From a virus (lineage: Duplodnaviria > Heunggongvirae > Uroviricota > Caudoviricetes), in IMG/VR virus record IMGVR_UViG_2703718792_000011, positions 1 to 19,384 of that record: a DNA stretch of 19,384 nt; one strand, 5' to 3'. Both the position numbers and the translations under genes were made by a program. The notes below the pieces were generated by a model that saw only the letters and a program-made list of their open reading frames with translations, ran no database searches and was not told the DNA's origin. This document shows positions 7,074 through 15,472 of this stretch, one piece after another (position 1 is the stretch's first letter; each line of letters opens with the position of its first letter).

Positions 7074-7265
7074 TCGCTCAACGTTGATACAGGCAACTGC
7101 ATAAAGCAGGCCCAAGAATCCAAGAACGTTAACAAAAATACCAGTAAGCATATGAATGTTTCAAGCCTAAATATTGATTCTGCAATTTCGGGACGGTACA
7201 CTGTCCAAGCACCTTATAAAGCGGGTGCCGGGATTGGCGTCCTGGAAATGTTATCGGCGATATAT

Positions 7266-7285
7266 GACGCGCCAGCGTCTTTTTT
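7266..7285 (+). terminator. Candidate rightward intrinsic terminator or attenuator upstream of the cII-position gene
   Basis: GACGC-GCCA-GCGTC hairpin (7266..7279) followed by TTTTTT (7280..7285). The stem is only 5 bp, so it is weak. Confidence 0.35.
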
Positions 7286-7451
7286 ATCGTCTGCGTCTGC
7301 GCACACCCAAATTATGGTGGGCTGGACGGGGGCACCGAAAGGTGCGCCGGTTTCCGATAACGCCGGTTACGCCAACCCCGTTCAGTTCACCACCAGCGAA
7401 ATTGGCGTTTCCGGTGGTGAAGGTAATTCACTGTTATCGGAGGCTGCCATC

Positions 7452-7814
7452 ATGGCTACAGTCCCAACTTCCCCATACCTGAAAATCGAAGTCGTCAACG
7501 GCAAGGCCGTTATTTTCTCCCTGCATGTTGCCTGCCATTTCAAGCGCATGCACCAGAACATCGTCGACAAAATCGAGTATCTGAACTGCTCGCGCGAATT
7601 TTTTACCCGCAATTTCATACCGGGTACTTATCACATCTATGGTGACTCCCTGCGTGGTTATTACATCACCCTTGATGGCCTGATGATGCTTCAGCTTGGG
7701 TTAAGTCTACGCACAATGCGGTACTACGAGAGCTGCATTGAAGCATTCCATGAGGCAGGGAACAGCCTGAATCTTACCGCTTTCCGCCGTAATCAGTGGG
7801 AGGCGCGTCCATGA
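7452..7814 (+). CDS. Hypothetical early-right protein (120 aa) in the cII position; possibly a CII/YdaT-like regulator
   Basis: Start placed at ATG 7452 (GGAGG with 8-nt spacer); the track's upstream extension to 7152 has no RBS and contains a terminator-like hairpin. The YdaT-like label comes from position after a YdaS-type cro only, not from a recognised motif. Confidence 0.6.
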   Translation: MATVPTSPYLKIEVVNGKAVIFSLHVACHFKRMHQNIVDKIEYLNCSREFFTRNFIPGTYHIYGDSLRGYYITLDGLMMLQLGLSLRTMRYYESCIEAFHEAGNSLNLTAFRRNQWEARP

Positions 7815-12648: not shown

Positions 12649-13401
12649 ATGAACCTTGAAGTCTTACCGAAATATTACTCCCCGAAATCTCCAAAACTGA
12701 GCGATGACGCACCGGCGACAGGCTCTGGTGGTTTAACAATTACGGATGTGATGGCTGCGCAGGGGATGGTGCAGTCGAAAGCACCGCTTGGGTTTGCCTT
12801 ATTCCTGGCAAAAGTTGGTGTTCAGGATCCTCAGTTTGCGATTGAAGGTCTGCTCAATTACGCGATGGCACTGGATAACCCGACATTGAATAAATTGAGT
12901 GAAGAAACCCGGCTACAGATCATTCCTTACCTTGTGAATTTTGCCTTTGCTGATTATTCCAGGTCTGCGGCAAGTAAGGCTCGCTGTGAGCATTGTGCTG
13001 GTACTGGATTTCATAATGTATTGCGCGAAGTGGTGAAACACTCCAGAAGCGGGGAATCTGTTATCAAGGAAGAGTGGGTGAAGGAACTATGTCAGCATTG
13101 CCATGGTAAGGGAGAAGTCAGCACAGCGTGCAGAGGGTGTAAGGGTAAAGGTATTGTCCTGGATGAAAAAAGAACCCGGCTTCATGGTGTGCCTGTTTAT
13201 AAGATTTGTGGGCGTTGCAATGGCAACCGGTTTAGCCGTTTACCAACCACACTGGCGCGGCATCATGTCCAGAAACTGGTACCGGACCTGACGGATTATC
13301 AGTGGTACAAAGGATATGCAGACGTTATTAATAAACTGGTTACAAAGTGCTGGCAGGAAGAAGCGTATGCTGAATCGCAATTGAGAAAAGTGACAAGATA
13401 G
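12649..13401 (+). CDS. Q: Late-gene antiterminator Q-like protein
   Basis: Start at ATG 12649 (GGAGAA with 4-nt spacer). Paired Cys/His motifs (CEHCAGTG, CQHCHGKGE, CRGCKGKG, CGRCNG) and a position immediately upstream of a promoter, short terminator and lysis genes. Confidence 0.7.
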   Translation: MNLEVLPKYYSPKSPKLSDDAPATGSGGLTITDVMAAQGMVQSKAPLGFALFLAKVGVQDPQFAIEGLLNYAMALDNPTLNKLSEETRLQIIPYLVNFAFADYSRSAASKARCEHCAGTGFHNVLREVVKHSRSGESVIKEEWVKELCQHCHGKGEVSTACRGCKGKGIVLDEKRTRLHGVPVYKICGRCNGNRFSRLPTTLARHHVQKLVPDLTDYQWYKGYADVINKLVTKCWQEEAYAESQLRKVTR

Positions 13402-13432
13402 ATAATTTTCGCCGAAGATGTCGACGTGATGC

Positions 13433-13461
13433 TTGCATTTTTCAAAAAATATGGATAAGAT
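13433..13461 (+). promoter_or_regulatory. Candidate late promoter PR' (TTGCAT, 17 nt, TAAGAT)
   Basis: -35 at 13433..13438 and -10 at 13456..13461, about 30 to 60 nt downstream of the Q stop. Confidence 0.4.
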
Positions 13462-13504
13462 TTTCTCAACGATGGGCCTTGTATGTCTACCGTTGGTAAA
13501 TGTC

Positions 13505-13531
13505 AAAAACCCGCCACTGAGCGGGTTTTTT
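13505..13531 (+). terminator. Rho-independent terminator (candidate tR') about 45 nt downstream of the putative PR'
   Basis: AAAAACCCGC-CACTGA-GCGGGTTTTTT: GC-rich stem with a six-T tract at 13526..13531. Confidence 0.7.
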
Positions 13532-13653
13532 GTACCTGTAAACTTGCTGCAGTACAGTAAACACGCTGGTGGTCGTGAATACTGACTTTTTATCTTGCTG
13601 GCTTTTTAGACAAGAGTTATTGGTATGTCATGTTAACCAGAAGGGAAAAAGAC

Positions 13654-13857
13654 ATGCTAAAACAGCAAGATATGACAGAAACCGCCGCCGCAGTCCTTCA
13701 TTTCTTACCTGCTGACAAGTGGGTAACGCCACGCATGATGACGAGAACTACCGGAGTAAGCGAAGCCCGGTGCCAGTTAATACTGACTCAGTTAGTTCTG
13801 GCGGGTCTGGCGAAGGATAACGGCGGGTACGGGAATAAATTCAGACGCTGCCAGTAA
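13654..13857 (+). CDS. Small hypothetical protein (67 aa), possibly a winged-helix DNA-binding protein; first gene of the methyltransferase moron
   Basis: Start placed at ATG 13654 (AAGGGA with 7-nt spacer); the track start at 13630 lacks an RBS. Sequence AAVLHFLPADKWVTPRMMTRTTGVSEARCQLILTQLVLAGLAKDNG looks HTH/winged-helix-like; this is inference. Confidence 0.5.
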   Translation: MLKQQDMTETAAAVLHFLPADKWVTPRMMTRTTGVSEARCQLILTQLVLAGLAKDNGGYGNKFRRCQ

Positions 13858-14007
13858 TGGCGGTTTCCTGCTGTGAAAATGGGCGGCTGGTGGGTGTTGG
13901 TAGCACCTGCCAGCCATTCGCTCATGCTTACTGGTCACAAGCGAACCACGGCCCACTGCTTTAGCGCAAAAGCAGAGTGAGCCTACCAGAGTTACGCTTA
14001 CTGATCC

Positions 14008-15060
14008 ATGAAAAACACTGTAAAAATAAACAGTGTTGATTTAATCAACGCTGATTGCCTGCATTTTATTCAGTCCCTGCCTGATGATTCCATTGACCTG
14101 ATTGTTACCGATCCGCCTTACTTCAAGGTGAAACCCAACGGTTGGGACAATCAGTGGAAAGGGGACGAAGATTACCTTAAGTGGCTGGACCACTGTCTGG
14201 CCCAGTTCTGGCGGGTGTTAAAGCCTGCCGGAAGCCTTTACCTGTTCTGTGGGCATCGCCTGGCATCTGATATTGAGATCATGATGCGTGAACGTTTCAA
14301 CGTGCTTAACCATATCATCTGGGCGAAGCCGTCCGGACGTTGGAATGGGTGTAATAAAGAAAGTCTGCGCGCATATTTTCCTGCCACAGAGCGCGTTCTG
14401 TTTGCTGAACATTACCAGGGGCCATATCGCGGCAAAAGTGACGGCTATGCGGCAAAAGAAAGGGAACTCAAACAGCACATAATGGCACCGCTGATATCGT
14501 ATTTCAGGGATGCTCGTGCCGAACTGGGTATAACGGCAAAACAAATTGCCGAAGCCACAGGTAAGAAAAATATGGTTTCCCACTGGTTTGGTGCCAGTCA
14601 GTGGCAGTTGCCGAACGAGGCTGACTATCGGAAGTTACAGGCACTGTTTTCCCGTATAGCGGCAGAGAAGTTTCAGGAACAACAACTGGAACAACCACAC
14701 CACCAGCTGGTGGCATCTTATGATTCACTGAATCGCAAATATTCTGAATTGCTGGATGAGTTTAAATCTCTCCGGCGCTATTTCTCCGTATCAGTCTCCG
14801 TGCCTTATACCGATGTCTGGACGCATAAGCCCGTTCAGTTCTACCCGGGTAAACATCCGTGCGAGAAACCGGCGGATATGCTCCGGCAAATAATCAATGC
14901 CAGTAGTCGCCCTGGTGATCTGGTTGCTGATTTCTTTATGGGATCCGGTTCCACAATAAAAGCAGCAATGGCGCTGGGGCGTCGGGCGTTAGGTGTTGAA
15001 CTTGAGTCAGAGCGGTTTAATCAGACGGTGAAAGAGGTAAGTGAACTGTTGGGGAAATAA
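14008..15060 (+). CDS. Orphan DNA methyltransferase (beta-class N6-adenine or N4-cytosine MTase; DPPY motif precedes the AdoMet-binding FxGxG motif)
   Basis: Motif IV IVTDPPYF near the N-terminus and motif I FFMGSGSTIKAAMALGRRALGVE near the C-terminus. No restriction endonuclease gene is adjacent. Confidence 0.9.
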   Translation: MKNTVKINSVDLINADCLHFIQSLPDDSIDLIVTDPPYFKVKPNGWDNQWKGDEDYLKWLDHCLAQFWRVLKPAGSLYLFCGHRLASDIEIMMRERFNVLNHIIWAKPSGRWNGCNKESLRAYFPATERVLFAEHYQGPYRGKSDGYAAKERELKQHIMAPLISYFRDARAELGITAKQIAEATGKKNMVSHWFGASQWQLPNEADYRKLQALFSRIAAEKFQEQQLEQPHHQLVASYDSLNRKYSELLDEFKSLRRYFSVSVSVPYTDVWTHKPVQFYPGKHPCEKPADMLRQIINASSRPGDLVADFFMGSGSTIKAAMALGRRALGVELESERFNQTVKEVSELLGK

Positions 15061-15067
15061 TTCTGGT

Positions 15068-15089
15068 GGCCACGTTGCGTGGCCTTTTT
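15068..15089 (+). terminator. Rho-independent terminator between the methyltransferase and the holin gene
   Basis: GGCCACG-TTG-CGTGGCC hairpin followed by TTTTT, 8 nt after the methyltransferase stop. Confidence 0.6.
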
Positions 15090-15136
15090 ATTTCCAACAC
15101 AGCACCCGCAAATATCGCGAGGTGAGAGATGACGAA

Positions 15137-15472
15137 ATGCCTCATAACCCAAATACCTGGCCGGACTGGCTGGAGTTGTTTCAGAGCTGGTGGCGTGGAG
15201 ACACGCCGCTGGGTGCAGTGATTATGTCGATCGTTATGGCTGGTTTGCGCATCGCCTATTTTGGCGGTGGTGGTGGCTGGAAGCGAAAAACGCTCGAGAT
15301 TTTGCTCTGTGGCGCTCTGACGCTGACCTTTGCATCCGCTCTTGAGTATGTCGGATGGCCTAAATCACTTTCTGTTGCCATTGGTGGCGGCGTGGGGCTG
15401 ATCGGTGTCGATGCTATTCGTGGGGCTGCAATGCGAGTAATCGGTAACAAGTTTGGTGGCTCTAAGGAGTAA
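15137..15472 (+). CDS. S: Holin (lambda S-like class I holin)
   Basis: Start placed at ATG 15137; the track extension to 15041 overlaps the methyltransferase and the terminator. Hydrophobic segments (AVIMSIVMAGLRIAY, LEILLCGALTLTFASALEYV, SVAIGGGVGLIGV) and a charged C-terminus. Immediately upstream of the endolysin. Confidence 0.8.
   Translation: MPHNPNTWPDWLELFQSWWRGDTPLGAVIMSIVMAGLRIAYFGGGGGWKRKTLEILLCGALTLTFASALEYVGWPKSLSVAIGGGVGLIGVDAIRGAAMRVIGNKFGGSKE

Follow-up and report, generated by a model that had tools for sequence, protein, structure and literature searches.

A conserved leader RNA was revealed directly in front of the DNA methyltransferase (MTase) gene of an Escherichia coli lambdoid prophage, the IMG/VR record IMGVR_UViG_2703718792_000011, whose whole analysed stretch of 19,384 nucleotides (nt) is called the window below. 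The leader occupies the 150-nt spacer of a two-gene cassette, in which a small open reading frame (ORF) of 67 amino acids (aa) is followed by the MTase gene of 350 aa, and the cassette is inserted between the antiterminator gene Q and the holin gene. The two genes are ordinary and already catalogued. The repeats in the spacer represent a well-supported leader RNA family which marks phage DNA-modification genes and is apparently undescribed. With a probability of roughly 0.7, we consider the whole to be a mobile, Q-dependent late anti-restriction cassette of which the modification gene is gated by the leader RNA, and not a lysogenic-conversion moron. All features described are on the plus strand unless another strand is given.

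Structure, conservation and gene association of the leader RNA

The leader has a length of about 125 nt (13880-14010). It is composed of a three-way junction of the helices P1, P2 and P3 (13880-13955), supported by covariation and by the covariance model (CM) R1, and of a hairpin P4 (13956-13975, CUGCUUU/AAAGCAG), after which the conserved tail GAGCCUAYCA follows at 13980-13988. The helix arms are located at 13880-13884/13951-13955 (P1), 13885-13896/13904-13915 (P2), 13917-13925/13937-13945 (P3) and 13956-13962/13969-13975 (P4), and the junction nucleotides (AAUGGGCG... and AACCAnGGCCCA) are near-invariant across Enterobacterales and Vibrionaceae. An earlier reading of the window made from the letters alone (the sequence-only reading) had noticed structured inverted repeats at 13858-14007 and took them to separate the two genes. 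The repeats are real (fold of the spacer, z = -2.5) and by the comparative data far beyond chance, but a mere separator they are not, being the most conserved part of the cassette. The spacer showed 91% mean column identity among E. coli, Salmonella and Kosakonia, compared with only about 51% for the small protein, and over 21 species the mean nucleotide identity to the window was highest for the element (83%), followed by the MTase gene (72%) and the small ORF (59%). In N15 and a Morganella phage, hairpins were found at the same positions with differing sequences.

Through the MTase alignment we gathered 80 species-level loci, drew the structure by hand and then built R1. The model found the element in 69 of these loci, and also in the window (13867-14010, 150 bits), SfV, Ayreon, N15 and others; without exception the copies were on the plus strand and ended at the MTase start codon. 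In a MAFFT alignment not fitted to the structure, 87.5% of the cells formed standard pairs, against 26-43% in slid controls; changes on both sides were found for 19 pairs (12.3±1.4 in shuffles), and the double-change cells numbered 125 against 39±5 in shuffles, with none of 500 shuffles reaching 125. The CM alignment of 87 sequences, which leans toward the model while the MAFFT alignment does not, gave 89.8% paired cells (26-46% in slid controls), 28 of 37 pairs doubly changed, and 209 such cells against 61±5.5, a value again reached by 0 of 500 shuffles. From the raw MAFFT alignment RNAalifold could recover no more than P1 and part of P2, because the hairpin arms were misaligned. The conserved secondary structure of the leader is backed by these compensatory changes.

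Comparison of the window with Rfam gave no match to the leader at gathering thresholds, and in the region 13400-15200 no match at E <= 10 overlapped the spacer. Among 60 phage records no RNA or regulatory feature was annotated at the leader, a few of them calling a hypothetical-protein ORF, and no description was found in the literature searched, the coverage of which was incomplete.

Other readings of the spacer region were tried and rejected. ORFs of 35 aa exist in the spacer, but a small protein coded there does not agree with the 1- and 2-nt indels and the helix-preserving substitutions in relatives. The sequence TGTGAAAAT at 13872-13880 resembled an extended -10 promoter, but about half of the relatives have GGAAAT, with the A at -11 lost, or a shifted register; the same positions read as a minus-strand U-tract terminator were inconsistent in relatives (AUUCCAC, AACCCAC). 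That a terminator always precedes the element was true for many Enterobacteriaceae and failed in Proteus and Providencia. The leader is also not homologous to the com-mom region of phage Mu, as R1 matched nothing in Mu with the filters off.

The element was searched independently of the MTase by two DNA-pattern searches of IMG/VR followed by R1. In at least two lineages it immediately preceded C5-cytosine MTase genes (PF00145); it was also found directly 5' of a Mom-family gene (PF25680, E 4.6e-73; phrog 'Mom-like DNA modification protein') located between Q and holin/lysozyme, and directly 5' of Com-like Cys4 zinc-ribbon ORFs of 38-48 aa. The Com-like ORFs matched phrog_6417 'translational regulator' (E 8e-6), phrog_13819 'gpCom' (E 2.6e-4) and, at 18.3 bits and thus under the cut-off of 22.9, Pfam Zn_ribbon_Com; they occur only in Vibrio-type cassettes, where M.EcoGII-type MTases come next. 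The gene next downstream of confirmed copies was always a DNA-modification gene or a Com-like ORF. In the loci searched, every confirmed copy lay on the coding strand and abutted or overlapped the start codon of an N6-adenine (m6A) MTase, a C5 MTase, Mom or a Com-like ORF, and the leader-bearing modification genes were always located between Q and lysis.

At the junction between Com-like ORF and MTase, where it was read (mainly in the Vibrio type), the Shine-Dalgarno (SD) sequence is in or beside a hairpin. At L088 (2440-2503), and also at L345, L346 and L351, the junction hairpin AGUGCC...GGCACU includes or abuts the GGAGG of the MTase. This Vibrio-type hairpin resembles the translation-inhibition structure of Mu mom, and together with the leader it would add a second, successive layer of translational control.

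The 3' side of the P3 loop, GGUCA at 13933-13937 and G(G/A)UCA in the family, is complementary to UGAUC at 14002-14006, two bases before the MTase start codon AUG (14008-14010), which has no SD upstream. Pairing statistics led us to propose this translation initiation region (14002-14010) as partner of the loop. In the CM alignment 96.7% of the cells of the loop-to-initiation-region helix were paired, and its variable pair was G.U in 50 sequences, A-U in 23 and G-C in 5. In the C5-MTase, Mom and Com types the ORF begins with AUGAC(C), 64-68 nt after G(G)UCAU, so that at this fixed distance the start codon itself is complementary to the loop. One locus, L042 (2364-2506, Enterobacteriaceae bacterium G50), was the sole leader copy with both partners lost, GGUCA being changed to ACUCA and UGAUC to AAAAC; judged from the sequence, it could be a decaying copy or could reflect co-dependence of the two sites.

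The methyltransferase and the small winged-helix protein

The MTase gene (14008-15060) encodes a beta-class N6-adenine DNA MTase of 350 aa, matched by PF01555 at residues 29-341 (E 1.3e-42). The motifs stand in the beta-class order, DPPY at residues 35-38 (nt 14110-14121), then a central target-recognition domain (TRD), then the C-terminal FFMGSGS at residues 309-315 (FxGxG, nt 14932-14949). No endonuclease gene adjoining the cassette was found by Pfam scan or in the PGAP annotation, and the enzyme is an orphan beta-class MTase as had been read from the letters. Identity was 81% with M.EcoGII over 349 aligned residues and 89% with the reconstructed ancestor Anc291, the TRD being aligned without gaps in both comparisons; by this measure the enzyme belongs to the M.EcoGII family. 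For M.EcoGII we used the sequence given in Supplementary Table S1 of the SUPREM paper (PMC11551740), a copy containing a few optical character recognition errors. The TRD comprises residues ~160-237 (nt ~14485-14718) and includes the KQIAEATG segment; an insertion of roughly 100 aa with this segment had been reported, and the segment is present, but it is the TRD of the family and not an insertion. The central domain of the family has been modelled as a four-helix-bundle TRD with a helix-turn-helix (HTH) (PMC11551740), and the solved structures among PDB sequence relatives match the catalytic core only.

M.EcoGII acts on adenines whatever the surrounding sequence. In the native lysogen neither M.EcoGII nor M.EcoGI is expressed, and clones with constitutive expression grew slowly and were unstable (PMC5778455). 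All reconstructed ancestors methylate DNA and RNA, none of the three enzymes tested for a site motif (M.EcoGII, Anc291 and SUPREM) showed one, and activity has been demonstrated both for M.EcoGII and for ancestral nodes that bracket the window MTase sequence (PMC11551740). The window MTase is most likely also a motif-less m6A enzyme. Its silence in the lysogen is suggested by the position behind the terminator tR', by the lack of a promoter-like site and by the literature on the homologues. With an enzyme that is probably non-specific and silent, neither a methylation motif nor a phenotype of the lysogen is expected, and two expectations of the sequence-only reading are not supported: a discrete modified motif conflicts with the non-specific close homologues M.EcoGII (81%) and Anc291 (89%), and altered host gene expression in the lysogen with the fact that M.EcoGII and M.EcoGI are silent there and harmful if constitutive. 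Anti-restriction, also named there as a possible role, is supported as the likely one.

M.EcoGII and M.EcoGI from the O104:H4 C227-11 prophages (PMC5778455) share with the window enzyme the DPPY-TRD-FxGxG arrangement, a length of 349-350 aa, the lambdoid phage type and the location between Q and lysis, and M.EcoGII-like genes of Stx2a phages have the same leader directly upstream. The window MTase differs from M.EcoGII as a 19% divergent allele that is nearer to Anc291 (89%). In many Stx2a-converting phages, e.g. NC_049918.1 at 25405-25503 (H69), only the last 34 MTase codons are left, with 82-85% identity; this remnant suggests that the stx region replaced most of an M.EcoGII-type MTase cassette.

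The small ORF (13654-13857, PGAP WP_000917724.1) belongs to the SfV orf47 family and to phrog_331, annotated 'function unknown'. It is preceded by an SD-like GAAGGG at 13640-13645, and an alternative ATG at 13630 would give 75 aa. Some relatives with 51-58% identity are labelled 'TrmB family' by NCBI. In an AlphaFold2 model from a 28-sequence alignment (pLDDT 87.5) the protein has the topology H1-strand-H2-H3-beta-hairpin, and the model confirmed the putative winged-helix fold that had been assigned from the sequence, in its minimal form. The Foldseek neighbours were minimal winged helices, of which the Z-alpha domain of ADAR1 was best (TM 0.84-0.87, root mean square deviation 1.1 A, E only 4e-3); further neighbours included the DNA-binding domains of Rrf2, IclR, MarR and TrmBL2 and the RNA-binding winged helices of eS25 and SelB. 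Among the 71 species-level loci with the leader, the winged-helix ORF was directly upstream of it in 43 and absent in 28. In N15 and Vibrio loci more distant winged-helix-like ORFs are located further upstream.

Three assignments of the small protein were rejected. With Z-alpha of ADAR1 it shares a compact winged helix of about 65 residues. Z-alpha contacts Z-DNA/Z-RNA through Asn173 and Tyr177 of helix 3 and a PPxW wing. The sequence identity was 15-16%, however, the positions of Asn173 and Tyr177 are occupied by Gln41 and Thr45, and the wing is Gly-rich without Pro or Trp. Like the C proteins of restriction-modification systems, it is a small nucleic-acid-binding type of protein encoded just upstream of a methylation-related gene; but C proteins are dimers with an Xre-type HTH which recognise C-boxes and regulate an endonuclease, whereas here the fold is a winged helix without Xre-type HTH (neither HTH_3 nor any other Pfam or NCBIfam family matched), and no endonuclease gene adjoins. 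It is also not a Com protein, as the model is a winged helix and the two Cys residues do not make the Cys4 zinc ribbon of Mu Com.

The small ORF has its stop codon within a hairpin loop, GUAA; this 7-bp hairpin (13847-13864, GCUGCCA-GUAA-UGGCGGU then UUUCCU) is, as read from the sequence, weakly terminator-like. The hairpin is kept by compensatory changes in Enterobacteriaceae relatives and is absent in Proteus and Providencia. In some species it is trailed by a long T-run and is then a genuine terminator that separates the small ORF from the leader.

Proposed role of the leader and competing explanations

In our reading, during lytic growth the Q-modified RNA polymerase would pass tR', the weak hairpin after the small ORF and the terminator at 15068, and passing several terminators is normal for Q-modified polymerase, as established in lambda biology. 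The MTase would then methylate adenines of the replicating phage DNA without sequence preference, and the packaged genomes would thereby escape many host restriction systems. Because unregulated methylation would harm the cell, expression in the lysogen would be blocked at two levels, transcriptional by the terminators and translational by the leader. For the latter, GGUCA of the P3 loop would pair with UGAUC just 5' of the SD-less AUG and mask the initiation region, so stray read-through of tR' in the lysogen would give no enzyme; late in infection, abundant Q-dependent transcripts or some opener would permit synthesis. The leader serves as a portable module before unrelated DNA-modification genes, i.e. 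C5-cytosine MTases, Mom, and Com-like regulators followed by an MTase.

That m6A MTases, C5 MTases, Mom and Com-like genes all have this conserved leader suggests one shared and transferable way in which temperate phages can carry self-toxic anti-restriction enzymes. Chromatin footprinting and RNA methylation tools make wide use of M.EcoGII as a reagent, and the harmlessness of its natural gene has so far been explained only as 'not transcribed in the lysogen'. As a putative translational control element, the leader is directly testable through defined compensatory mutations. It may also serve as a genomic marker for finding phage DNA-modification genes without protein homology, and it is a candidate new RNA family for annotation because about one third of complete E. 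coli genomes carry it.

The nearest known system is com-mom of phage Mu, in which Com opens a translation-inhibition structure (PMC6483171, PMC3299994). Both cassettes have a late DNA-modification gene with a small protein gene directly upstream; toxicity, an anti-restriction role, silence in the lysogen and a structure-masked start are properties of the Mu gene and are predicted for that of the window; moreover, the window-type leader precedes Mom-family and Com-like genes in related phages. The differences are that the RNAs are not homologous, that the small protein of the window is a winged helix and not a Cys4 zinc ribbon, and that the operon is Q-antiterminated, whereas that of Mu is activated by C and controlled by Dam/OxyR. 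The genes hin1523, nma1821 and hia5 encode non-specific m6A MTases at a mom-like position behind com-like genes and are undetectable in lysogens (PMC3299994); unlike the window MTase, they are of the alpha class with the opposite motif order and belong to Mu-like, not lambdoid, phages, and no sign of the leader was seen with them.

Several observations weigh against the leader-gated reading. The element was absent in 11 of the 80 MTase loci, of which two were truncated at or near the MTase start and the rest were mostly distant relatives, so it is not indispensable. Within the main type, the loop-to-initiation-region helix had one-sided changes only, and the fit to this pairing was poor in N15, Gilliamella and L042. 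The sequence alone is compatible with a leader that represses, switches or even enhances translation. The motif-less activity of the enzyme is carried over from relatives with 81-89% identity. On the minus strand the element folded more stably in 54 of 69 sequences, by a mean of 3.2 kcal/mol, and A.C mismatches, which are G.U on the minus strand, occupied 212 cells against 71 for G.U, mainly at two P3 positions.

Beyond gating as such, we might tentatively speculate that the leader is a regulatory RNA of a new class, dedicated to phage DNA-modification genes, which as a sensor or as a switch operated by a protein would license toxic anti-restriction enzymes only in lysis-committed cells and was captured independently by four unrelated gene families. 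If this were true, the opener would be, for example, the adjacent winged-helix protein, a host factor or the folding kinetics of Q-modified transcription, and the leader would be a portable 'safe-expression' module.

The best surviving alternative, which we think unlikely, is that the leader is a true switch and not a constitutive damper, either a riboswitch or a platform for a trans-acting opener of the masked start late in infection; candidates are the neighbouring winged-helix protein in a role like that of Mu Com, a host protein, or fast Q-modified transcription that changes the folding pathway. Junction nucleotides near-invariant from Enterobacterales to Vibrionaceae are typical of ligand or protein pockets and are compatible with this explanation, without being diagnostic of it. 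The tie of the element to four unrelated kinds of modification genes, the winged-helix ORF directly upstream in 43/71 loci, the RNA-binding domains of eS25 and SelB among the structural neighbours of the small protein, and the precedent of Mu Com also speak for it. However, no known riboswitch class in Rfam matches, and since the leader also stands before Mom and Com genes, S-adenosylmethionine is unlikely as common ligand. Many element loci, including those of the C5 and Mom types, are without the winged-helix ORF, and no alternative 'ON' pairing is conserved.

Far less probable is the explanation that the cassette is an autonomously expressed moron, in which a site-specific orphan MTase modifies the lysogen chromosome and alters host expression under a C-protein-like controller. 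In its favour, some orphan MTases of phages do have epigenetic roles, the cassette is polymorphic as an insertion and carries a terminator of its own, and the small protein has a nucleic-acid-binding fold. The moron label of the sequence-only reading keeps these two traits of insertion polymorphism and own terminator; an own promoter is not supported, since the simple scan showed none upstream of either gene, and the homologues are silent in lysogens. The close homologues are furthermore non-specific and toxic, the cassette lies behind tR' within the late operon with no promoter-like site upstream, and the small protein, which has no match in Pfam or NCBIfam, differs from the Xre-type C proteins and is lacking in 28/71 element-bearing loci.

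It is just as improbable that the element acts on DNA or on mRNA stability, as a recombination site at the cassette boundary or as a structure for RNase III/E processing or stabilization. The element does mark the 5' edge of exchangeable gene cassettes, and P2 is a long helix of 12-13 bp, a possible nuclease target or protective 5' structure. Against this, the compensatory changes including G.U pairs and the conserved unpaired junction bases point to RNA, the complementarity to an AUG-containing sequence at fixed distance points to translation, and no recombinase gene was associated.

The least probable explanation, a functional RNA of the minus strand that silences the modification gene as a cis-antisense in the type I toxin-antitoxin manner, would account for the folding energies and A.C mismatches given above, but no promoter-like site was found on the minus strand near the element, the place where its 3' end would lie reads AUUUUCAC, AUUUCCAC or AACCCAC and lacks a consistent U-tract, P2 holds 45 plus-strand G.U cells, and downstream of the element nothing is conserved across the four gene families but the start region, whose plus-strand pairing with the P3 loop uses G.U in 50 sequences. 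We kept the plus strand because the start codon is the conserved partner, G.U pairs of the plus strand occur in P2, and neither a promoter nor a terminator is evident on the minus strand; this strand assignment, resting on context and start-codon pairing, is not airtight.

Layout and distribution of the cassette

The gene order around the cassette is DUF968 protein, Q, tR', 67-aa ORF, 150-nt spacer, MTase, terminator, holin, lysozyme and Rz, and the region 13400-15200 (1.8 kb) was 100% identical to strain 377323_2f. The upstream edge is formed by the 82/21-type antiterminator Q (12649-13401; PF03589, E 6.2e-54; PGAP 'antitermination protein'). It is followed by a tR'-like intrinsic terminator (13505-13536) which closes the short late leader and has a perfect 10-bp stem, AAAAACCCGC/GCGGGTTTTT (arms 13505-13514/13521-13530), and a T-run. 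The cassette ends with an intrinsic terminator at 15068-15094, composed of a 7-bp stem with six G-C pairs and then TTTTTATTT (15068-15084 plus T-run in the scan), and the downstream edge is the holin gene S (15137-15472; PF05106; PGAP), where the lysis cassette starts. Both the two-gene insert between Q/tR' and holin and its own terminator directly downstream, as described from the letters, were found at or near the positions given for them. tR' is annotated as a terminator in SfV and Ayreon, and terminators equivalent to 15068-15094 are annotated in SfV, Ayreon and N15.

A simple scan found no sigma-70-like site upstream of the small ORF or the MTase, though a weak promoter could escape it; three sites were found against 2.3 expected, and the sole plus-strand site falls within the small ORF. 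No tRNA was detected by ARAGORN.

The cassette is mobile. It was found in 1897 of 5426 complete E. coli genomes, and the trio with a spacer of about 150 nt stands behind four Q families (PF03589, PF06530, DUF1133/PF06576 and PF06323) and before differing holins. It is inserted between genes that are adjacent in related phages, and relatives hold extra or different inserts at the same site. SfV orf47/orf48 are the same DNA with 97% identity, which is also present in mEp460, phage cdtI, Ayreon and Stx2c phages. In SfV, mEp460, phage cdtI and the Stx2c phages both genes, the spacer and the terminators were conserved at 97-99% nucleotide identity, with no difference of substance to the window; in these records the genes are called 'unknown' or 'DNA methylase' and the spacer is unannotated.

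Other inserts were also observed at this site. In Ayreon (L002, 2626-3309), mEp460 and Stx2c phages, an extra insert of about 680 bp lies between tR' and the small ORF; this insert, which has two ORFs (of 37 and 141 aa) and an annotated terminator of its own, forms another cassette stacked there. At L004, L005, L007 and L008 (2136-3587, minus strand) a gene for a 483-aa AAA_15/AAA_21/AAA_23 ATPase is inserted between Q and the small ORF. This ATPase of some E. coli prophages has an OLD/Gabija-like signature, typical of defence genes.

The short pR'-tR' late leader (~13468-13536, CAACGAUGGGCCUUGUAUGUCUACCGUU... and terminator) is conserved with the same Q type in another genus (L024), where late leader and terminator adjoin the RNA element directly. 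The equivalent read-off RNAs in other prophages are Hfq-dependent small RNAs (StxS, possibly HnrS). The CUUCU seed expected for HnrS was absent from 13468-13536, and the identity of the pR'-tR' leader with HnrS was not confirmed.

Elsewhere in the window, Rfam matches above gathering were found for the Hfq-binding RNA isrK (7209-7285, 63.7 bits) and the C4 antisense RNA (7310-7397, 82.8 bits), which together make a P1/P7-type immunity module. Both lie within the PGAP 'ash family protein' coding sequence (~7152-7814), and considering this overlap, the call of that coding sequence may be partly wrong.

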